Assembly (NCBI GenBank): GCA_030390025.1
Contig: CM059431.1
Coordinates: forward strand, 144,214,001 to 144,278,000
DNA length: 64,000 bases
Reading direction: 5' to 3'
From: Squalus acanthias
Lineage: Eukaryota
Shown here one piece after another: positions 127 through 64,000 of the stretch. How positions within the stretch are numbered: position 1 is the stretch's first letter; every line of letters starts with the position of its first letter. Under the pieces are notes generated by a model. It did no database searches and had not been told where the DNA came from. It was given only the letters and a program-made list of their open reading frames with translations. The position numbers were made by a program, and so were the translations under genes.

Positions 127-934
127 GTAAGTCTTTATCACCAGTTATTGCTTTGTATGGAGCGATGTTAGACTGTATTATCGCTATTGGTGCCTGCCGG
201 ATGATGAGGAGTTTCTCCGTGTTTGTTATAAAGTTGTCTCTTCACTTTCCTTTGGGTGTTCACTGCCCACCAGTTACAGTCTTCTCTGTCCCTGGTAAGC
301 TGGGACTTGAATTTGAGCAGCGCCTTATCGCGAATTGATTCGCTCCGCAAACAACCAATGACTTTTATTGTCTGACAAGTAACACGTTCACTGGTGACCG
401 GATTTATCATCACTACTGAGCCTCAAGCAGTCTCCAGAATAGATCCGGAACTGGTGTTAGATCACCAATGTGTGCTTGTGTATTACCCTGAAAATTCAGA
501 GTGTTATTATTATTCTCATATGCTATAGTAAGAATAGTTCTTATTTAAAGGCACGGTCATGTTCCCCATTCAGTTTAATTAAATGTTCGAAGCATTCTCA
601 CTTGCGCTGTATATCTCCAAAATGCACTGTCAATATCTGAGTCAGCTCCAACAGTCCGTGTGTCATAAGACTGCGCGCCACAATCAGAACTGCTTCCTTC
701 CAAATGATCCTGATGGTTACAATGTGTATGCAGAATATAAAGTATAAACAAATGATTTAGTTCAGAATCATGACACATTTTAACACATCATCTACTGTAG
801 CTGCAGCTGTAGAATCCCGTTCCCCTATCCTGCTTCCACTTTCTACAATTCAGACCGACATTGGGTAGGCGGTGAAGATGTTTACTGTGGTGGGGGGGTT
901 AATTTCTCCCGAAATCTTTCTTCTAGCATCAAGT

Positions 935-1403
935 CCCGTTCGCCCATCACGCCGGTGCTCGCTAACATATATTGGCACCCGGTTAAGCAGCGCCTCGATT
1001 TCAAAATTATCATCCTTGTTTTCAAATACCTCCACCGCCTCGCCCCTCCCTTTCTCTGTAATCTCCTTCAGCCCCATAACCCCCTGAGTTATCTGCGCTC
1101 CTTTAATTCTGCCCTCTTGAGCATCCCTGATTATAAGACTCAATCATTGGTGGCCGTACGTTCTGTTGCCTAGGCCATAAGCTCTGGAATTCCCTGCCTA
1201 AACCTCTCCACCTCGCTACCTCTCTTTCCTCCTTTAAGACGCTCCTTAAAACCTACCTCTTTGACCAAGCTTTTGGGCGCCTGTCCAAATTTAACCTTTA
1301 GTGACTCGCTGTCAAATTGTTTGTCTTAAAATACTCCTGAGCAGCGCCTTGGGACATTTTACTACGTTTAAGACGTTATATAAATACAAGTTGTTGTTGT
1401 TGT
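935..1403 (+). mobile_element. L2-clade LINE 3' fragment
   Basis: ORF2 C-terminal remnant (LANIYWHPVKQRLDFKIIILVFK; LKTYLFDQAF) and tail ...GTTATATAAATACAAG(TTG)n. Confidence 0.8.
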
Positions 1404-1595
1404 TTATTGTTACTTCCAACTTTTAATATTTTCTGATCCAGTTCAATCCGATGTGTCGGTATTTATTCCCATCTGCTCCTTTAACCTTTACACGGTCGTA
1501 GTTTCATGTATCTTCTATCCTCTACAGAGCCCCAGACCACATTCGATCATCTGCAAGTCTTTTCAATATTAACATACTTTTCTATATTTTCCACA

Positions 1596-1841
1596 GTGTC
1601 AGCCGCGGCTCAGTTGGTAGCACTCACGCCTCTGAGTCAGAAGGTTTCATTCTGGCTGACACTCCAGTGCATTCTTGAGTGAGTGCTGCACTGTCGGAGG
1701 AGCCGTTTTTCAGATTAAATGCTAAACCGAGGCCGCAACTGCTCTCTCAGGTGGATGTAAAAGATCCAATGGCACTGTTTCGAAGTAGAGCAGGGGAGTT
1801 TTCCCCGGTTTCCTGGCCAATATTTATCCCTCAACCAACAT
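1596..1841 (+). mobile_element. tRNA-derived Deu-domain SINE, 5' part (split by CR1)
   Basis: tRNA-like head GTGTCAGCCGCGGCTCAGTTGGTAGCACTC; body matches the complete copy at 35900-36368. Confidence 0.8.
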
Positions 1842-3218
1842 ATAGAGTGGATAAAGGGGAACCAGTGGACGTAGTGTATTTAGACTTCCAAAAGGCATTT
1901 GACAAGGTGCCACACAAAAGATTATTGCTTAAGGTAAAAAATCACGGGATTGGGGGTAATATTCTGGCATGGATACAGGATTGGCTATCTAACAGAAAGC
2001 AAAGAGTTGGGATAAATGGTTCATTCTCAGACTGGCAATCAGTAACTAGTGGTGTTCCACAGGGGTCAGTGCTGGGTCCCCAACTCTTTACAATCTATAT
2101 TAACGATTTGGAGGAAGGGACCAAGTGTAACATATCAAAATTTGCAGATACTAAGATGGGAGGGAAAGTAGTGAGTGAGGAGGACATAAAAAACCTGCAA
2201 GGGGACATAGACAGGCTAAGTAAGTGGGCAGAGATTTGGCAGATGGAATACAACACTGGAAAGTGTGAGGTGATGCACTTTGGCAGTAAAAATCCTAGAG
2301 CAATTTATTATCTTAATGGCAAGAAACTGGAGAGTACTGAAGTGCAAAGGGATCTGGGGGTCCTGGTGCACGAAACTCAAAAGGTTAGTATGCAGGTGCA
2401 GCAAGTGATTAAGAGGGCAAATGGAATGTTGGCTTTCATTGCTAGGGGGATAGAATATAAAAATAGGGAGGTATTGCTTCAGTTGTACAAGGTATTGGTG
2501 AGACCGCACCTGGAATACTGCATACAGTTTTGGTGTCCTTACTTAAGGAAAGACATCCTTGCTCTCGAGGCAGTGCAAAAAAGATTCACTCGGTTAATCC
2601 CGGGGATGAGGGGGTGGTCATATGAGGAGAGGTTGGGTAGATTGGGACTCTACTCATTGGAGTTCAGAAGAATGAGAGGCGATCTTATTGAAACATATAA
2701 GATTGTGAAGGGGTTGGATCGGGTGGATGCGGGGAGGATGTTCCCGATGACGGGTGAGACTAGAACTAGGGGACATAGTCTTAGAATAAGGGGCTGCTCT
2801 TTCAAAACTGAGATGAGGAGGAACTACTTCACTCAGAGGGTGGTAGGTCCATGGAATATGCTGCCACAAAAAGCTGTAGAAGCTTCATCATTAAATAAAC
2901 TTAAAACAGAAATAGACAGTTTCCTGGAAGTAAAGGGCATTAAGGGTTACGGGGAGCGGGCAGGAATTTGGACATGAGTCTAGGTTCGGATCGGTCATGG
3001 CCCTGTGGGTAGTGGAGCGGGCCCAGGGACCGTGTAGCCTGATTCTGCTCCTATTTCGTGTGTGCAATTCTGTTAGATGCAGGAGATGGTTCTGTGATAG
3101 TAGATAGTAGATTGGCGGTTAGGATCAGATCAGCCATGATCTTATTGAATGGCGGAGCAGGCTCGAGGGGCCGATTGGCCTACTCCTGCTCCTATTTCTT
3201 ATGTTCTTATGTTCTTAT
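1842..3218 (+). mobile_element. CR1 LINE, 5'-truncated (RT to 3' tail), inserted in a SINE within the GPCR intron
   Basis: Open RT frame ([23 protein letters not shown]) to stop at 2977; (TTCTTATG)n tail. Confidence 0.93.
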
Positions 3219-3375
3219 CACTGAAAGAGATAATCTGGTCATTATCAGATTGCGGTTTGAAAGTTCTTGGCTGCTGTGTTTTTAACATTAAAATAGCAAA
3301 CATGTAAAACCTGGCTACAAAACGCTTTGGGACGTCCTGAGATCATCAAAGGTGCTTTATAAATGCAAGTATTTC
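3219..3375 (+). mobile_element. Deu-domain SINE, 3' part
   Basis: Resumes where the 5' part stops (CAACAT|CACTGAAAGAGATAATCTGGTCATTATC) and ends in the L2-like tail ...TATAAATGCAAG. Confidence 0.75.
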
Positions 3376-3536
3376 CTTATTTTCTGACATGTTAGTTAAA
3401 AAATTCGCGCAAAAATTAAAGTGCAATTGTCCTCACGGGATGGTAGAAAGTAAACTTTTACTTCCTCACATATTCCGGTTGATTGTAATTTTGTGGTTTA
3501 ACATAATTCGAACATTTCTTTCTCTATTTATTCCAG

Positions 3537-4470
3537 TTAACCTGGTGGCGATTTCCATCCTGTGCCGAGGAAATTGCCGTCTCTCCAAATGTGTCACTCA
3601 CTACCTGGTGGCGATGGCAGTAGCAGATTTAATGGTGGTGATTATTGAAGTCCTGATATACCAGATTACTAGAACTTATTGGAAAATCAAATTCCTGAAA
3701 AAGGCTCCATTCTGTCTTGTCCATTATGTCCTGTGTCAGGTTGCTTTGGATTGTTCTGTTTGGCTCACCGTCGCTTTTACTTTCGATCGCTTTGTAGCGA
3801 TTTGCTGCCCGAAATTTAAGTTGAAATATTGCACCCAGAAAATTGCGGCGGTAGTTATTTTCACAATATGTCTGGGGTTCTGTTTAAAGAACATCCCCTT
3901 TTATTTCCTGTATATGGAATCAACTTATTATGTTCTCGGGCGTCTGAGGTGTTTGAGGAAACAATCCCTTCCCATGTCGGAAGCGTTTGAGGGGTTTTAC
4001 TGGTTGGAACGTCTGTTGACGCTGCTGCTTCCTTTCTTTCTCATTTTGCTCCTTAATGCTCTGACCGTCAGACAGATTATTGCGGCGAGTAGAGTCCGCA
4101 AGGGCTCAGGGCCCGGAGTAATGGCGAGAAGAAGAGAGATCCAGAGATGGAGAACCGGAGACAATCCATCATTCTGCTCTTCACCCTGTCGGGCAGTTTT
4201 ATTCTGTGTTGGATGACAATTACTCTGGTCTTCATTCTCAGCCGATGTCTTTACACAGACCTAGAAACGTCTATTCGTCTTTATCAGGCACAATGTGTTG
4301 GGGACATTATTCAGCTTTTCAGCTGCTGCACAAACACCTTCATTTATGGAGTGACCCAGACGAACTTCAGAGAGCAGTTGAGGAGCGCGGTGGTGTATCC
4401 TGTTACTCTCGTTGCTAAATTAGTTAGATGTTGTGTACCGCACAGATCAATGCGTCAGTTAATGTTCTAG
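3537..4470 (+). CDS. GPR139-like exon 2 (TM1-TM7), frameshifted
   Basis: Polypyrimidine tract plus AG at 3535-3536. ORFs 3389-4216 and 4147-4470 become continuous if one G is added to GGG at 4102-4104. Confidence 0.88.
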
Positions 4471-11339: not shown

Positions 11340-12065
11340 TACCTTGCTAAAGGAGAGTAAACACCTGATTGACCGCCGGAGCAAAGAGAGCCCTGACCAC
11401 AAACGGGAGCGCGATGGAAAGGATCCAGATGTGGAAAACACTCCTCCCTTTGGATGAGGCAGCTCCAGCTCGCGGTTTTACGCTGAATATCCGACTGTTC
11501 CACATAAAGAGCGCATGCGCTTCACCGGCCACGGGGAAAGAATGCGTTTACACTAAACCCCGCCTGATGGTTAGAAAACCGAGAGCCCCCGTTTTATTGG
11601 TCAATCACATGTAGTGATGTAACGTGCCCAATTCAGTTACTCGAACCCAGTCCACTGGCAGTGGATCCATAAAACTCTGAGCAAAGCATCGTAGGGTTTC
11701 CTGTAGTCCAAACAATAAAATGAAATGAGCATTGAGTCGGCGGCCGTCGGGCTGGGAGGATTTGGTGAGCGGACAAAATAAAGGCTTTTAACTCTCAATA
11801 TTTCAAAATACAGCGGGGCAGAAGCGGGCGTAAGAGGGCCGCACCAGCCCGAGTCCGGTACAGTGACGCACCGGCAGGGAAAGACCCCGAGGTCGGTGGA
11901 ACCCTCATAGCGCTAGGGAGTAAAGGATCGCCTGGGCGGTGCACAGAGAGGAAAATTAATGGAGGGAACATTGGGCGAGTTCCCTTGCTCTATGCGAATC
12001 CTCCTCGCCCTGTTTTGCTCTGAGCACCCTGTGTAGTCGCTACTTTACTCCCGAGTGCGGAACGA
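11340..12065. promoter_or_regulatory. CpG-rich promoter-like region
   Basis: CpG retained in a CpG-poor background; GCGCATGCGC (NRF1-like) at 11511-11520; ATTGG and CCAAT at ~11596 and ~11627; donor-like sites on both strands. Confidence 0.45.
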
Positions 12066-13104
12066 CAAATCTCTGTCCCGGGGGCTGGATTTCATTCCCT
12101 GGCTCATAAACATCCCGAGTGCACTGCGACCGGAAATTACACACATCTGAGTGAACCCGTCATGACCCCGGCAGAGCTTTCCCCAGTTTCCCCAATCAAA
12201 TAGCCAGGGGAGGCACATGGCTCATTTACCGTCCGATATTGGGATCCCGCCTCGGGTTGGGATGGAACATGAAATTTGGCGCTGAACCCGCTGAAGCAAT
12301 GGGATGGGCAATGCAGGCATTAGTTTGTGAAACTATCTGGATCGCAGCAGTGACTGAGGATGCTGGTTCCTCATACAATGAGCACTCACATTCACACACT
12401 CTTAAGCTTCTTCTTACTGTATGAAATACAACATAGGACGTTCCAGCTTCATGGTTCTGAGGGCAGGAGACCTCCAGCAAAGCCTGCTTGGCTAGTGAAA
12501 GGCAGAAGAATTTCAGTGAACTCACCGGAGCAGCCAAGGCAACATCAGTCAGTTTCCCATGTAAGAGTGCGCTTTAATAACCACAGAGTCATAGGGGGAA
12601 AAATTCAGTTGGTTGCGCCTCCCGTTAGCACCTTAAGAGGGCGCTAATGGGGCGCAAAGCCGCTAGCCCCCGGGCGCAGCGATGTTTGCGCCGCTCGGGA
12701 ACTTAACTAGACATTGTGCGGCGGCGCTAAACATTACCGCCGCAACCACCTGCGCGCGCAGATTGTGACATCATTCCATGGTGCAACGCCCTTGTGGTGC
12801 CCCGGAGCGGAAATTGAGTGGCGCCCCCTGCCTTACCGCCTGGAGCATCCAACGACCGGAAGACTGGAACGCTATCAATCGCTGTGGGGCTGTGGGGCGC
12901 GCCATTTAAAGGGGGCCTCTTCCTGTCTTTTTCTGTGGTTGACATTTTTGCACCACTCGTTCTGAGAGAGAGAGAGAGATTCGGAGAGAGAGAAAGAGAG
13001 ACTTCTGCATTGAGTCAACGCTTTGTGAGTTAGTTTTGCCTACTGATCCTAACTTCGCTGGTACTTTGGTTGCTGTCCTTCATAACTTTGCTTGCAAAGA
13101 GACT

Positions 13105-14256
13105 ATGGGGGCTGCACTGAATGGGGGCGTCGTCCTGCTCCAGCTGAATCGGAGGACACAGAGACGCAGAGAGAGAGTGGCAATGATGGCCAGACGGAGA
13201 AGGGCCAACAGGCGTCTGTACAGGAGAGCTTACCCTCCCAGGGTATATCGTGAACAGCTCTCCTACATTCATATGTCTGAGGAGCTGTGTTTGCGAAGGC
13301 TGCGATTCAGCAAGGAGGTGGTCACTGAGCTCTGCCACCTGCTGCAGCCAGATCTGCAGCCTCAACTGAGGTCCAGGACGTCTCTGTCGGTGGCAGTGAA
13401 GGTCACAGTGGCTCTCAACTTCTATGCTACTGGCTCATTTCAAGCTGCTGCTGGGGACCTCGCCAATATCTCCCAGTTCGTGGTGCATTGCTGCATCCGG
13501 CAGGTCACAAATGCCCTCTTTAAAAGGAGCCGAGAGTTCATCTCTTTCCCCATGACCCTAGACAAGCAGCGTGACCGCGCTCTGGGCTTTGCGAGGATAG
13601 CGGGCATCCCCATGGTGCAGGGCGCCATTGACTGCACGCATGTGGCTTTGCGTGCTCCACATGAGAATGCCGAGGAATTCCAGAACAGAAAGGGGTTCCA
13701 TTCCTTGAATGTTCAGTTGGTCTGTGACCACAGACAGCTGATACTCGCTGTCAATGCCCACTATCCTGGCAGCTGCCACGATGCTTTCATCCTGCGCCAG
13801 ACTACTGTGGCAGAACTTTTCGAGGCGCCGCATCAGCCAGTTGGTTGGCTTCTCGGGGACAAGGGGTATCCATTGAGCACCTGGCTGATGACACCGCTCC
13901 GTACGCCCAACACCCCTGCTGAGCTGCGGTACAACGAGAGCCATCAAGCTACCAGGAACATCATTGAGCGCACAATCGGCGTGCTGAAGCAACGGTTCCG
14001 CTGTCTCGACCATTCTGGAGGAGCCCTGCAGTACTCGCCTGAGCGAGTATCCAACTTCGTAGTTGTGTGCTACATGTTGCATAACATGGCAATCGTCAGG
14101 ACCCAGCCAATGCCACCAGGCCTTGGAGCACCACCAGAGGAGGAGGAGGAAGAGGACGAGGAGGATGATCATCAGCAGCACCAAGGCGGGAGGGCGGCCC
14201 ACAATGGTGAAACTGCAAGGGCCGTCCGTCAACGGCTGATAGCAAGCCGCTTCTAG
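13105..14256 (+). CDS. Harbinger DDE transposase (HARBI1-like), 383 aa, uninterrupted
   Basis: First ATG at 13105; ALNFYATGS, GAIDCTHV (D), NRKGFHSLNVQLVCD, LLGDKGYP (D), IERTIGVLKQRFRCL (E), MLHN. Confidence 0.95.
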   Translation: MGAALNGGVVLLQLNRRTQRRRERVAMMARRRRANRRLYRRAYPPRVYREQLSYIHMSEELCLRRLRFSKEVVTELCHLLQPDLQPQLRSRTSLSVAVKVTVALNFYATGSFQAAAGDLANISQFVVHCCIRQVTNALFKRSREFISFPMTLDKQRDRALGFARIAGIPMVQGAIDCTHVALRAPHENAEEFQNRKGFHSLNVQLVCDHRQLILAVNAHYPGSCHDAFILRQTTVAELFEAPHQPVGWLLGDKGYPLSTWLMTPLRTPNTPAELRYNESHQATRNIIERTIGVLKQRFRCLDHSGGALQYSPERVSNFVVVCYMLHNMAIVRTQPMPPGLGAPPEEEEEEDEEDDHQQHQGGRAAHNGETARAVRQRLIASRF

Positions 14257-14568
14257 GGCCCCTGCTGCGGAAATGGCTTCTGCCATTGCTAACAACATCA
14301 ATGAACCCAGCACGCAACCCCTAAGCCGGTCAAGGCACCAATGATTCCCAACACCAAACATGTATATTTTGAATACAAAAACTTATTTATTTTACAAACT
14401 CTGTGTGTGTCATTTCCTCATGACAAACTCATAGAAATAAACACAAAAAAACAGTCATTAACATAACTGGTTCTCACAACCTGGAGATAATGTCCAAAAC
14501 ACTAGACAAAAGTTGGACCACGAACCTCGGCCTTTAATAAAAAAATGACCAGCATTTTGTCACACCTC

Positions 14569-16388
14569 CTACTTTTTAACCTTCGAGGGTGATCTCCTTC
14601 CTTTGCGCACTTCCCTCCTTCTAACCCTACTGCTCCTCCGTAATGGGAACTCAGTGGCTGCAGCAAGGCTGGTGGAAGGCTGCTGATTGTCAAACCCTGA
14701 CACTGCAGATGCCCCTGAAGGACGGCCTCGACCAGTTCTGGGCCTGGAGGGCCCGGCTGCAGACTGCACCAACTCTGCATGGGCGGCAGCAGTCTGTCCT
14801 ACAGGCGGTGGCAAGTGCAGTGGAGAAGTGACAGTGTTGGCAGCAGGAATGCTGTCATCGTGAGAGAGGACAGCAACTCCCTGCTCGACCGACACACTGG
14901 CACTCCCACGGGGCAGCACTTCAGCATCCGGAGCAAACTGCTGGAGCACAGATTGCTGGCCTGCTGCGGCACGGTGAGAGCCCTGGGGACATGTGAACGA
15001 ACCATCGAGGTTGGCAGCAGGCAGTGCTCGCGTGGCCTCAATCTGAGTCTGCATGAGAGCAGTCAGAGATGGGATCACGGCAGTCAGTGACTGAATTGCA
15101 GCACTAAGCTTTAGTGTGGCATCCGCCTGTGCTACAGCGAAGTGCTCCACACTCCTTGCCAGTGACTCAATGCATTCGGGCACCCTTCCCACTGCACCCA
15201 TGAGCTCAGTGTGCATGCCCACCGCCTGGGTGTTCATTTCTGCGATCAGCCGCTCCTCCTCTGCGTCCATTGCAGTAGGAGTCGCTGGCATACTCTCCCT
15301 CTGGGGAGAAGGCCCCCGTTCTTCCCTACCCCCATGGCGTTGCTGCAGCCCGCTGGGTGCTGGAGCTTCACCCTCATCAGACCCTTCCCCCCTGCTCCCC
15401 TCCAGGGAAGGCGTGTTCCCAGTGTGGGCATGGGCTTCCTCGGGAGAGGGTGGCACTGATGCTCCGGCTTCCTCTTCCTCCTCGGCTGCAGCTTCACTCC
15501 CACTGGCAGCTTCAGGGCCCGTCTCCTCAGCTGGTGAATCACCATCTGAAAGCAGGGAGGTACAAGAGTGGCTTTAGCGTGAGGACAGGGTGGCAGTAAG
15601 GGAGGAATAAGTGCAGGGAGTTAGCAAGTTGGATTGAAAGTGTCAAAGGCTGGTGTTGTGAGGGACAAGTGGAAGGACAGAGGACAAAAAGGAGATGACC
15701 TTACCATTGCTGTCCAGAACGGGGTCGGCGTCTCCAGTGGCGACGGGACCGATCACCCGGCTTGCCACAATCCTGTGGACGCGCTCCTCAAGATCGCTGA
15801 GGGGTTGCAGCTGAGGCCGCCCTCCACCTGTCCGTTGCTGCTGTCTCCTATTATGCGCCAGCTTGGCCTGCAAGAAAAAGGACAGCATCTGAGTAAATAT
15901 ACAGCCATGGTCTTGCCTGATGTGCCTCCCATAGGTGAATAGCCCTTACTGTATACAGCCATGGTCTTGCCTGATGTGCCTCCCATAGGTGAATAGCCCT
16001 TACTGTATGCAAAGTGTAGAATGTGTGTGCGTGTTTCATGAAAGGGCCATAGGTGTTGGATGAGTGTTGTGCATTGGGGTTTTAAGACCCTCTGGCCATA
16101 GAGTGAGTTTGAGATGGAGGGATGGATAGGTATTGAGAAAAAGCCACTCACCCTGACGACCCGAGTGAGGTCGTTGAACTTTTTGCGACATTGAACATGG
16201 GTCCTGGGCACCATGCTCCTGGAGGAGACGCTCTGAGCCACCTCCCTCCACACTCTTCTGTACTCGCGTGGCAAAGGCCTCCTGCCACTCTCAGGGAAGA
16301 GTATAGATCTTCTGCGCTCCACCGCGCCAACCAGAGCATCCAAGGCCCGCTCGGTGAAGCGCTGAGCTCGTTCTCTCACCCTCTCCAT
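14569..16388 (-). CDS. Harbinger Myb/SANT-like DNA-binding protein, 3 exons (16388-16152, 15867-15705, 15545-14569), 458 aa
   Basis: RFTERALDALV...WREVAQSV...RTHVQCRKKFNDL; AKLAHNRRQQQRTGGG. GT-AG junctions with matching phases (0, 1); 237+163+977 = 1377 nt with no internal stop. Confidence 0.9.
15898..16005. repeat. Perfect 54-bp tandem duplication in intron 1 of the Myb/SANT gene
   Basis: TATACAGCCATGGTCTTGCC...CCCTTACTG occurs at 15898 and 15952. Confidence 0.95.
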
Positions 16389-16754
16389 CCTTGGCAGCAA
16401 AATGAATTCACAGGTCTCTCCAGGCCGAGATTCAAGGCTGCAATGAGCAGGGTGCGGTTGGGGAGTAAGTTGCCCCCCCCCCCCCTTTAAGAACTGGCCG
16501 GCGCCAGTGTGTCTGTGTTCCCTCGCTAACTGGCAGCACCTGCGCTGCGCTCGCGCGCTGAGTTAGCGCCTCACTGCTCGGCCTTTGCGCCTTAAGACAG
16601 GTGTGCAGCACCTGATTTAGCGCTCCACTCACCTCCCGGGGCGGTAAAAGTGAAGTTTCCAGTCAGTGGCGATAATTAGCGCCAGGCGCTAATTTTTGCA
16701 CCCAGACGATATTTGCGCCCCAAACGGGGCGCGACCTAATTTTTCCCACTATGA

Positions 16755-17575
16755 CACTAATACTGGTGGCGATCCCACTTTACCGTTACTGTTGGTAAAT
16801 ATACGCTAACATTAATGGTGTTGGCCCTATCATAAAATTACTGGTGCTGACTCTACTCTAACAGTACTGCTGGTGACCCTACTCTAACATTATTGGGTGT
16901 GACCCTACTCTAACATTACTGGTGGTGTCCCTACTCTAACATTACTGGTGGTGACTCTACTCTAACATTACTGGTGGTGACACTGCTCTAACATTATTGG
17001 TGGTGAAACTACTCTAACATTACTGGTGGTGTCCCAACTCTAACATTACTGGTGGCGACTCTACTCTAACATTACTGGTGGTGTCCCTACTCTAACATTA
17101 CTGGTGGTGACTCTACTCTAACATTACTGGTGGTGACCCTACTCTAACATTACTGGTGGTGACTCTACTCTAAGATTATCGGTGGTGAAACTACTCTAAC
17201 ATTATTGGTGGTGTTCCTACTCTAACATTACTGGTCTTGATGTTAATTTAACATCAATAGTCGTTACCCCGCACTAACATTAGTGATGGTGAATCTACTC
17301 TAAATTTACGGCTGTTGCGGATACTAAAACGTTAATGGCAGCAAACCTACTGCTATATTGCTTGTGTTTATTCTACTCGAAGACTGGTGGTGACCCTACT
17401 TTAACATTAATGGCGGTACATCTACTCTTACATTGGTGGTGTTGAAATTACTCCAATATTACTGGTGGTGCATCTACTCTAATATTACTCCTGCTATACA
17501 TACTCTGAAGTTACTGATGAGTTCTGTACTCTAACATTACTGCTGGTGAACGCACTCTAACATTAATAGTGTTAA
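16755..17575 (+). repeat. 26-bp minisatellite (GGTGGTGACYCTACTCTAACATTACT)n
   Basis: About 30 head-to-tail units with no unique spacers; degenerate units continue at 24258-24350 beyond the Penelope insertion. Confidence 0.95.
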
Positions 17576-22249: not shown

Positions 22250-23136
22250 GGGAGAGAAATTCAGTATCGCCCCATTGGGGGCTCAATTATCGGCCGGGCG
22301 CAAAGATTAGCGCCTGGCAATAATTATAGCCACCGACTGCAAACTTGACTTTTATCGCCCCTGGAGGTGATTGGATAGCTAAATCAGGCGCTTCACTCCT
22401 GTCTTAAGGCGCAAAGGCCGAGGAGCGAGGCGCTACCTCAGAGCGCTGGCGAAGCTCATGTAATGTCAGTCAGCAATGGAACACACACACAATGGCACGG
22501 GCCAGTTCTTAAAGGGGATGGTTAATCTAACTTTCCATCCACATCCTGCTAATTGCAGCCTTGAATCTCGGCCTGGAGAGACTTGCACATCAAATCTGCT
22601 GGAAAGAACAATGGAGAGTACCAGGCAAAGAGCTCAGAGTGCAACCCCCACAGTCTCTTCTAAATCGATACAAGGAATCGCAAATCAAAATGAACCTGCA
22701 AAGTGCTGCTCAGTGCCCAAAACTCCTTCACACAACGTTGAAACTCTCCAGAAGTCTCTCTCTCTCAGAATGCGTAGTTCAAAAATGGCACCAACAATAA
22801 AAGGCAGGAAGCGGTCACCTTTAAATAGCGCTCCCGCTTTCCCTTCATGACTGCAGAACGCTCCACTCAAACTGTCGTTGCTAGCGTCAGGCGGTAAGGC
22901 AGGGGGCGCCACTCAATATCCGCTCCGGGGCAATACCGGGGCGTTGCGCACTCGACTGATGTCACGATCTGCCGGCGCAGGAGATCGTGGCGGTAGTGTT
23001 TAGCGCCTCGGCAAAATGTCTAGTTAATTTCGTGAGCGGCGCAAACTTCGCCGCGCCTGGGCGCTAGACGCTTTGCGCCCCATTAGCACCCTCTTAAGGC
23101 GCTAACGGGAGGCGCAACCAACTGAATTTTTCCCCC
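22250..23136 (-). mobile_element. Non-autonomous Harbinger deletion derivative (887 bp) nested in Penelope
   Basis: Both ends are homologous (reverse orientation) to the ends of 12594-16749; 3-bp TSD ATA at 22247-22249 and 23137-23139. Confidence 0.93.
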
Positions 23137-59188: not shown

Positions 59189-60139
59189 TTAGCTTAAACC
59201 CTCCGCAACAGCACTAACAAACACTCCCCCTAGGACATCGGTCCCAGTCCTGCCCAAGTGCAAACCGTCCAGTTTGTACTGGTCCCACCTCCCCCAGAAC
59301 CGGTTCCAATGTCCCAGGAATTTGAATCCCTCCCCCTTGCAACATTCCTCTAGCCACGTATTCATCTGAAATATCCTTCTATTTCTACTCTGACTAGCAC
59401 GTGGCACCGGTAGCAATCCTGAGATTATTACCTTTGAGGTCCTATTTTTTAATTTACCTCCTAACTCCCTATATTCAGCTTTTAGGACCTCTTCCCGTTT
59501 TTTACCTATATCTTTGGGACATATATGCACCACGCCAACTGGCTGTTCACCCTCCCCCTCCAGAATGCCCTGCAGCCGCTCCGAGACATCCTTGACCCTT
59601 GCAACAGGGAAGCAACATACCATCCTGGAGTCTCATTTGCGGCCGCAGAAACGCCTATCTATTCCACTTACAATAGAATCCCCTATCACTATAGCTCTCC
59701 CGCTCTTTTTCCTCCCGTCCTGTGCAGCAGAGCCACCCATGGTGCCAGGAAGTTGGTTGCTGCTGCCTTCCCCCGATAAGCTATCCTTCTCAACAATATC
59801 CAAAGCGGTATATCGGTTTGAGAGGGGGGTGGCCACAGGGGACCCCTGCACTACGTGCCTGCGCCTACTACTCTGCCTGGTGGTCACCCATTCCCTTCCT
59901 GCCTTTGCAGCATTTAGCTGCGGTGTAACCAACTCATGAAACGTGATATCCACTACGTCCTCAGCATCGCGAAAGCTACAGTATGCATCCATTTGCAGCT
60001 CCAGCGCCGCAATGCGCTCTGCGAGTAGCTGCAGCTGGATACACATTCCGCACACATGGTCGTCAGGGACACAGGAAGTGTCCCTGATTTCCCACATAGT
60101 GCAGGAGGAGCATGACACGGGGCCGAGCTGTGCTACCAT
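59189..60139 (-). pseudogene. CR1 ORF1 (CxxC zinc finger, coiled coil, SGNH esterase), one in-frame stop
   Basis: CSSC...CGMC, IVIGDSIV, DGLHL; TGA at 59635-59633 is in frame with the downstream ORF. Confidence 0.9.
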
Positions 60140-60449: not shown

Positions 60450-60820
60450 AGGCTCTGTAAAAATGCCCGCGAAAGTGAGGTTAAATACTCACTGTGCTGT
60501 TGCTCTCTCCGCTCCTGAAACCGGCTTCTGAAAAAAGCCCGCGAATGTGAGTTTAAATCCTCACCGTACAGTCGCTCTCTCCGTTCCCGACACCGGCCTC
60601 TGTAAAAAAGCCCGCGAAAGTGAGTTTAAATACACATTCTACCGTCGCTCTCTCCGCTCCCGACACTGGCCTCTGAAAAAAGCCCGGGAAAGTGAGTTTA
60701 AATATTCACTGTGCTGCTGCTCTCTCCGCTCCCGACACTGGCCTCTGAAAAAAGCCCGGAAAAGTGAGTTTAAATACTCACTGTACCATCGCTCTCTCTG
60801 CTGCCGACACCGGCCTCTGA
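60450..60820. repeat. 72-bp tandem array (5 copies) at the CR1 5' end
   Basis: GCCCG starts at 60465, 60537, 60610, 60682, 60754; each unit has the imperfect palindrome GTGAGTTTAAATACTCAC. Confidence 0.93.
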
Positions 60821-60878
60821 AGTGGGAATTGGAACCCACACCTGAACACAGCGCCTTTGACCGGTCGGCCATCCTGAC
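60815..60878 (-). pseudogene. tRNA-Leu(CAG)-derived fragment lacking the variable arm
   Basis: GTCAGGATGGCCGACCGGTCAAAGGCGCTGTGTTCAGGT/GTGGGTTCCAATTCCCACTTC resembles vertebrate tRNA-Leu(CAG) with about 19 nt deleted. Confidence 0.8.
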
Positions 60879-63009: not shown

Positions 63010-64000
63010 GACTTACTGTTGTTGATGCTGCTCTATCATTACTCGTGGTGATCCTACTCTAATATTGCTGGTGGTGACCCCACTCTGACAGTATTGGTAC
63101 TGACGCAATTCTAACCTTACTGGTGATGACCCTACTCTAATATTACTGTCGGTGTCTCTATTCTAACATTACTGTGATGACCCTACTCTAATATGACTGG
63201 TGGTGACGCTGCTCTAACATTACTGACAGTGACCCTACTCTAATATTACTGACGGTGACTCTACTCTAACATTATTGACGGTGACTCAGCTATAACATTT
63301 TTGGTGATGATCCTGCACTTACATTAATGTTTTTGACACTAGTCTAACATTACTGTGTGTGAATTTACTCTAACATTACTCTTGGTGGCGTTATTCTATC
63401 ATTAGATTAGAGTCACCACCAGTAATGTTAGCGTAGGGTCAAAAGCAATAATTTTAGAGTAGTCTAACAACCAGTAATGTTAGAGTAGAGTTACCACCAT
63501 TAATGTTAGAGTGGAGACACCACCAGTAATGTTAAAATGGACTCACCACCAGTAATTTTAGAGTAGGCACACCATAAGTAATGTCATAGTAGATCCACTA
63601 CCAGCAATTCTAGAGTATTATCACCACCAGTAATGTTAGAGTAGAGTCACAACCTGTAATGTTAGAGTAGAGTCGCAACCAGTAATGTTAGAGCAGAGTA
63701 ACCACCAGTAATGTTAGAGTAGAGTCACCACCAGTAATGTTAGAGTTGGGTCACCACCAGTAATGTTAGAGTCGGGTCACCACCAGTAATGTTTGAGTAT
63801 TGTAACTACCAGTTATGATACAGTTGAGTCAACACCAGTAATGTTACAGTTTGGTCACAATCAGCAATATCAGAGTAGCGTGCCCACATTTCAAGTTAGA
63901 TCTGAGTCATCACCAGTAATGTCACTGTGTGGTTTCCAGCAGTAATGATAGAGTAGAGTCACCACCAGTAATGTTAGAGCAGGGCCACCACCAGTAATGT
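63010..64000. repeat. 26-bp minisatellite (same family as 16755-17575) with an internal strand switch at ~63405
   Basis: CTACTCTAACATTACTGGTGGTGAC units up to ~63404, then GTCACCACCAGTAATGTTAGAGTAG units to the window end. Confidence 0.95.

Follow-up and report, generated by a model that had tools for sequence, protein, structure and literature searches.

A full-length Harbinger-type transposon with two open genes in Squalus acanthias is probably an ageing copy of an abundant family

A window of 64,000 nucleotides from the genome of Squalus acanthias (assembly GCA_030390025.1, contig CM059431.1, positions 144,214,001 to 144,278,000) contains a full-length Harbinger-type element of 4,156 bp. 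The element is bounded by 12-bp terminal inverted repeats (TIRs; GGGGGAAAAATT), which begin with G and match each other at 11 of 12 positions, the single mismatch being at the second base of the right one. Between them lie two convergent genes, one encoding a DDE transposase and the other a Myb/SANT protein. The coordinates of all features are collected in Table 1.

The transposase open reading frame (ORF) matches the Pfam domain DDE_Tnp_4 (PF13359) with an E-value of 4.6e-39. Its AlphaFold model is confident, with a predicted local distance difference test score (pLDDT) of 86.5 and a predicted template modelling score (pTM) of 0.80. A sequence-profile search of the PDB with the transposase returned nothing significant, and Foldseek gave no match at an E-value of 0.001 or better; the highest-ranking of its weaker hits are DDE transposases and integrases, including the piggyBac structure 6x67 (E-value 0.01). 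Four acidic residues would be the metal ligands, as in HARBI1-type proteins. Among the 120 best of 423 protein matches, these acidic columns are conserved (D176 in 99/118, D226 in 84/115, D252 in 93/115, and E288 in 75/116 homologs). The window protein departs at only two positions from residues held by at least 80% of homologs. Residue 168 is isoleucine here, phenylalanine in 101 of 118 homologs and isoleucine in 7, while residue 323 is tyrosine here, cysteine in 84 of 99 and tyrosine in 4. The family majority also has phenylalanine at 168 and cysteine at 323.

The Myb/SANT gene consists of three exons separated by GT-AG introns, and of the four GT-AG combinations tried, a single one yields a long product (458 amino acids). 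We aligned four sequencing runs (X1, X10, X13, and X16) to positions 11700-16850 at 88% likeness. Runs X10 and X13 contain a joint, 15545/15705, that is exactly Myb intron 2, and this joint was not found in the DNA-type runs X1 and X16. The RNA type of X10 and X13 is our guess, as it is not on record and both runs also cover introns. The joint for intron 1 is not among the joints listed. Within intron 1 lies a perfect 54-bp tandem duplication, which is probably specific to the window copy and seemingly missing from most copies of the family, because base 15955 is G in all of the depth of X10, X13, and X16, as would fit copies without the duplication. A search for longer relatives of the Myb protein gave one match among 298 candidates. 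This anatomy agrees with a preliminary description of the locus made from the sequence, which had proposed an apparently intact two-gene Harbinger transposon with an open transposase of 383 amino acids bearing the catalytic motifs, a spliceable Myb/SANT partner of 458 amino acids, and both TIRs, one of them with a G-to-T change. Absent from that description are the substitutions I168 and Y323 and a miniature inverted-repeat transposable element (MITE) of a related subfamily, which lies 5.5 kb from the element and joins its first ~525 and last ~390 bases.

The ends of the element carry a repeated motif, TTWGCGCC, with nine occurrences in the 627 terminal bases and none in the 3,529 interior bases. 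The MITE ends contain seven, and the remaining 58,957 bases of the window contain two. Restriction of the motif to the element ends suggests that these are putative binding sites of the Myb protein. In the passages cited for zebrafish Harbinger3_DR and for rice Ping/Pong, transposition needs both proteins; a subterminal motif is bound by the Myb protein, which also carries the transposase into the nucleus, and integration duplicates 3 bp inside an extended palindromic target site (PMC2836001, PMC3016246, PMC9710019). By analogy, the Myb protein of the present element would attach to the subterminal repeats and guide the transposase into the nucleus and onto the element ends. The transposase would then cut and paste the element at A-N-N-Y-[3 bp]-R-N-N-T sites with a 3-bp duplication, and may also move MITEs such as that at 22250-23136. 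The anatomy of the element matches each of these presumed steps of binding and mobility.

Table 1 Features of the Harbinger-type element and its surroundings (positions in the window).
Feature	Position	Strand	Remarks
Left flank	12585..12593		ends in ATA; mirror image of right flank
Full-length Harbinger-type element	12594..16749	+	TIRs in register with related MITE; left-end depth step in 4/4 runs
Left TIR, 12 bp	12594..12605	+	
Left subterminal region	12606..12950		4 TTWGCGCC motifs; candidate Myb-binding sites, putative function
Transposase ORF, 383 amino acids	13105..14256	+	open; D176, D226, D252, E288 present; I168, Y323 depart from family and homologs
Myb/SANT exon 3, to stop	14569..15545	-	low-complexity, no Pfam match; acceptor 15545 confirmed in X10, X13
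Myb/SANT exon 2	15705..15867	-	donor 15705 confirmed by joint in X10, X13
Perfect 54-bp tandem duplication	15898..16005		in Myb intron 1
Myb/SANT exon 1	16152..16388	-	Myb domain; Myb_DNA-bind_5 (PF13873), E-value 6.1e-11
Right subterminal region	16480..16737		5 TTWGCGCC motifs
Right TIR, 12 bp	16738..16749	-	G-to-T at position 2
Right flank	16750..16758		starts with TAT; runs into 26-bp minisatellite
Related-subfamily MITE, 887 bp	22250..23136	-	non-coding; 74-81% identical to both element ends; perfect TAT/TAT duplication

We then asked how many related copies exist. Between 45 and 74% of the sampled 31-mers of the element are present in 18 of the 23 listed runs, which come from nine studies and cover seven coded organisms and one unlabelled; runs X19-X23, with a small 31-mer share or none, were not used. 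A flank contig of the window locus in X1 shows 0 differences at a depth of 42.9, and organism A is therefore probably the species of the window; the RNA-type run X10 is from the same organism as X1. The summed contig depth of X1 has a median of 6.0e5 over 23 interior bins and of 621 over five flank bins, a ratio of ~970-fold that is not itself a copy number and was obtained from the portion of X1 covered by the reading (55%). Dividing the lowest interior bin by 31 for contig overlap still leaves ~170 copies, and a fair reading of the copy number is hundreds to thousands. Joints in the runs, such as that from 12931 to 16615, correspond to internal deletions and thus to non-autonomous derivatives. 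The family is multi-copy, transcribed, spliced, and young in sequence. An empty-site joint is not among the joints listed from the same portion of X1, and missing flank cover in X10, X13, and X16 is given no weight as evidence. The left flank (12044-12559) is itself moderately repeated in X1, with a depth of 621-4,067.

This abundance bears on the idea that the two genes are domesticated host genes like HARBI1 and NAIF1, for which one could cite the two open frames and the spliced Myb gene. We consider domestication extremely improbable because of the multi-copy depth, the internal-deletion derivatives, and the related MITE with its TAT/TAT duplication; the TIRs, the subterminal repeats, and a neutral ratio of missense to silent changes (below) likewise speak against it. 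The single-copy domesticated locus that the preliminary description wished to check by copy number is thereby ruled out. A tree was built from the window protein and 34 of the 120 matches (35 proteins), and in it a supported group of 15 rows (98/96) comprises the window protein, 12 sawshark proteins, and two ray proteins. The window protein has no close ortholog-like partner in this tree, and the conserved pairs P0004/P0005 and P0023/P0026 lie elsewhere.

The age and state of the window copy were assessed from its differences to the rest of the family. The nearest long contigs differ from it at 21 of 1,132 bases (X10, 1.86%), 37 of 1,833 (X13, 2.02%), and 24 of 1,499 (X16, 1.6%), as judged from 14 pieces out of the 24 listed; the remaining ten are 2.8-11% diverged. 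At 19 of the 28 listed difference sites inside the element, at least 80% of the X1 depth has another base. Ten of these changes are missense, three silent, and six non-coding; the ratio of 10:3 compares with ~3:1 expected from random substitution, and one of the 19 is of CpG type. For 13 of the 28 sites, among them those behind I168 and Y323, the base of the window copy is missing from at least 99% of the X1 depth. The leftover depth at six of these 13 corresponds to 0-5 single-copy equivalents, as against 11-220 at the other seven, and the six private bases are common to few or no sister copies. X10 has the majority base alone at 11 of the 13.

The rate of mutation places these differences in time. 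The source passage for a shark gives 7e-10 per base per generation, with a 95% confidence interval of 1.4-14.1e-10 (PMC10587355). At that rate, 13 changes in 4,156 bases (0.31%) correspond to at least 2.2-4.5 million generations, and a divergence of 1.6-2.0% to 11-29 million generations, so that at the shark rate even the minimum divergence would make the insertion millions of generations old. With substitutions only, both frames would stay open by chance in 20-45% of cases at 1-2% divergence, and in 0.7-8% with insertions and deletions at one-tenth of the rate. Overall, chance alone would leave both frames open in roughly 1-45% of copies, and open-frame copies are thus expected in so large a family. 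We conclude that the window element is probably an ordinary ageing copy of an abundant family, drifting neutrally and likely not a source element. It would have been inserted millions of generations ago and have drifted since, its open frames surviving by chance rather than by selection.

Several points weigh against this conclusion. The 28 sites belong to 40 listed out of 358 difference rows, which were picked by support and not at random. Leftover X1 depth of 1.8-4.9 copy equivalents would still allow a few sister copies, 6% and 28% of the X10 depth at sites 14072 and 14505 does not have the majority base, and contigs drop rare variants, X1 moreover having been read in part. With insertions and deletions included, both frames staying open at 1.5-2% divergence has a probability of 0.7-2.4%, and a single shark species supplied the mutation rate. 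On the protein side, D176, D226, and E288 are jointly kept in just 47 of 120 homologs, while the window copy has all three. Isoleucine at 168 and tyrosine at 323 also occur in a few homologs, and hence these substitutions are not established as disabling. The base behind Y323 is absent from the portion of X1 read, and may therefore reflect an allele or an error of the assembled sequence.

The preliminary description had gone further and suggested recent activity and a natural autonomous copy. It is unlikely, in our view, that the window copy is a competent autonomous element that expresses both proteins and mobilises itself or family MITEs. Its open frames, acidic residues, GT-AG introns, and subterminal motifs are intact, its fold is confidently modelled, family transcripts are spliced, and 6,497 of 37,264 X1 contigs are at least 99% alike, although mostly short. 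Against competence stand the private changes at conserved residues, the neutral missense-to-silent ratio, the few or absent sister copies, the TIR mismatch, the lack of a shared 3-bp duplication, and the 11 sites at which X10 has majority bases only. Abundant CpG, which had been offered as a mark of recent activity, does not serve as one. The element has 43.6 CpG per kb against 26.8 in the rest of the window because it is GC-rich; the observed-to-expected ratio is 0.56 for the element, 0.58 for the rest of the window, and 0.87 for the much older MITE (19-26% diverged). CpG abundance is therefore rejected as a sign of youth.

The flanks of the element were examined for traces of its insertion. 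They read ATA on the left and TAT on the right, matching over TA (2 bp) and lacking the identical 3-bp duplication, as previously noted. The flanks mirror each other over eight bases, seven of them matched (P about 4e-4), and an unoccupied site would form a palindrome of 16 bp. At the family level a 3-bp duplication is seen in the one other complete insertion available, the MITE, with TAT/TAT. An A-N-N-Y / R-N-N-T motif fits all five other half-sites, against a background of 0.136 each; these are the two MITE flanks, both sides of a tandem-element joint in X1, and a loose end in X13, the last three read by eye. Two loose-end consensus rows (agreement 0.53 and 0.71) also fit the motif and were not counted. 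The X1 joint, in one contig, runs from 16755 to 12594 and links a right end to a left end across 11 bases: a pair of family elements in head-to-tail arrangement within an octamer-like repeat.

For the window copy, the left flank fits the motif and the right flank fits at one of two positions. Given the mirrored flanks, hybrid ends are the most economical explanation, with each junction genuine. We suggest, with less certainty, that the ATA and TAT ends derive from two different insertions, which recombination between family copies or a join made in the assembly brought together. There is a real chance, though clearly below even, that one insertion entered a palindromic site; it would have duplicated either TA alone or 3 bp, and in the latter case the duplication would since have lost one base or been converted by template switching. 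The formal TA/TA duplication and the palindrome (7 of 8 pairs) favour a single insertion; the 3-bp TAT/TAT of the MITE, in the same register, disfavours a 2-bp TA duplication as a family rule, and both readings with the loss of one base break A-N-N-Y / R-N-N-T. Targeting of CR1 tails is not confirmed in the window: the flanks are ATAGAGTC-like, but the eight CR1 tails in the window end in other repeats, of the TTCTTATG or TTCTATG type. A decayed Myb exon suspected by eye in the left flank (12461-12574) is not supported: it scores 1.9 bits, below the top ten of 1,000 shuffles (2.4-4.2 bits), and six-frame tiles gave no hit to such an exon.

The wide occurrence of the family among the coded organisms raises the question of recent horizontal transfer. 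The 31-mer shares described above and organism E contigs that are 97.6-99.1% identical, while the left flank is without cover in X16, would be in keeping with such a spread. However, the organisms are coded and their kinship is not given, and X16 may be too shallow for flank assembly. Shark mutation rates are very low according to the cited passage (PMC10587355). Annotated proteins among the matches listed are no closer than 65% identity, the best being a sawshark protein, and no non-shark protein among them is close. At 14686, 14688, and 14996 organism E has bases that correspond to minority subfamily alleles of A and are lacking in B, which suggests shared ancestral subfamilies. We therefore regard a recent horizontal spread as highly unlikely, and slow shark evolution could explain near-identical sequence in at least seven coded organisms.

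Elsewhere in the window, the 26-bp minisatellite of the right flank occupies 16761-17565 and recurs at 63013-64000, where its orientation flips at ~63400, forming a long inverted array. A 291-amino-acid ORF at 3341-4216 (+) matches 7tm_1 (E-value 1.3e-16) over 189 of 260 profile positions, with a C terminus that appears frameshifted by eye. Several HARBI1-like proteins match weakly by tblastn (best E-value 2.3e-4) at 59619-59828 (+), in a CR1-like ORF1 region where a profile search found no match. A 72-bp tandem repeat of 5.1 copies (60453-60821) lies upstream of a CR1-like element. As to the preliminary claim that all other elements in the window are decayed, judged by ORF listing and self-BLAST only, nothing beyond CR1-like ORF fragments was seen, the longest of 432 amino acids.

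Among the protein matches listed, the closest relatives of the transposase are elasmobranch proteins under the automatic gene name 'putative nuclease HARBI1' (e.g. P0001 and P0002 of Pristiophorus japonicus, at 60-65% identity), which carry no description at the level of a transposable element. Our literature search found no publication dealing specifically with a Harbinger family of elasmobranchs, Repbase, Dfam, and the supplementary tables of PMC4482050 lying outside its scope. The DNA transposons of the grey reef shark, which make up 1.58% of its genome, are most often of Harbinger types; the cited passage gives a class total, without describing a family, an intact copy, or activity (PMC12498223). 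In the elephant shark, the passage cited reports that Harbinger was not detected (PMC9179366).

The broad Harbinger definition (PHIS superfamily, two-gene Myb type) comprises short TIRs starting with G or A and a length near 4.1 kb (PMC4482050, PMC9179366). The present element falls within it, with DDE_Tnp_4, a Myb/SANT gene, G-start TIRs, 4,156 bp, and a 3-bp duplication in the family. Its triplets (TAT, ATA, and TCT) differ from the TWA duplication of the narrow PIF/Harbinger group and from the CWG duplication of NuwaI (Han et al. 2015). ISL2EU elements have an AT duplication and a YqaJ exonuclease as second gene, whereas the second gene here is Myb/SANT without a YqaJ match. The element is therefore left unassigned among these narrower groups.

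The vertebrate Harbinger with demonstrated mobility is a reconstruction (PMC2836001, PMC3016246), and a natural working copy, if real, would be a ready two-protein, target-selective system. Since the family is abundant, transcribed, spliced, and common to several organisms, better candidates than the window copy may exist among its least diverged members. It nevertheless seems quite unlikely that the family yields a naturally competent vertebrate Harbinger still transposing in several shark species. Natural copies that are intact have already been published for vertebrates. As the cited passage describes it, Harbinger-Snek of sea kraits is a high-copy two-gene family with intact natural copies, numbering 269 in L. 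colubrina and one in L. laticaudata, transcribed and accompanied by short derivatives; it was acquired horizontally and makes up 8-12% of the genome, and the window family is likened to it by description only (PMC8437027). A close parallel in design is zebrafish Harbinger3_DR with its derivative Harbinger3N_DR, whose described parts (Sinzelle et al. 2008) likewise include a DDE transposase and a Myb-like gene, short TIRs, repeated subterminal motifs, a 3-bp duplication, and a preference for extended palindromic targets. The target described for Harbinger3_DR is AAACACCWGGTCTTT with a CWG core, whereas here TAT, ATA, and TCT are set in A-N-N-Y / R-N-N-T. Harbinger3_DR was reconstructed and is mobile in human cells, while the window element, likened to it by description, is known from its sequence.

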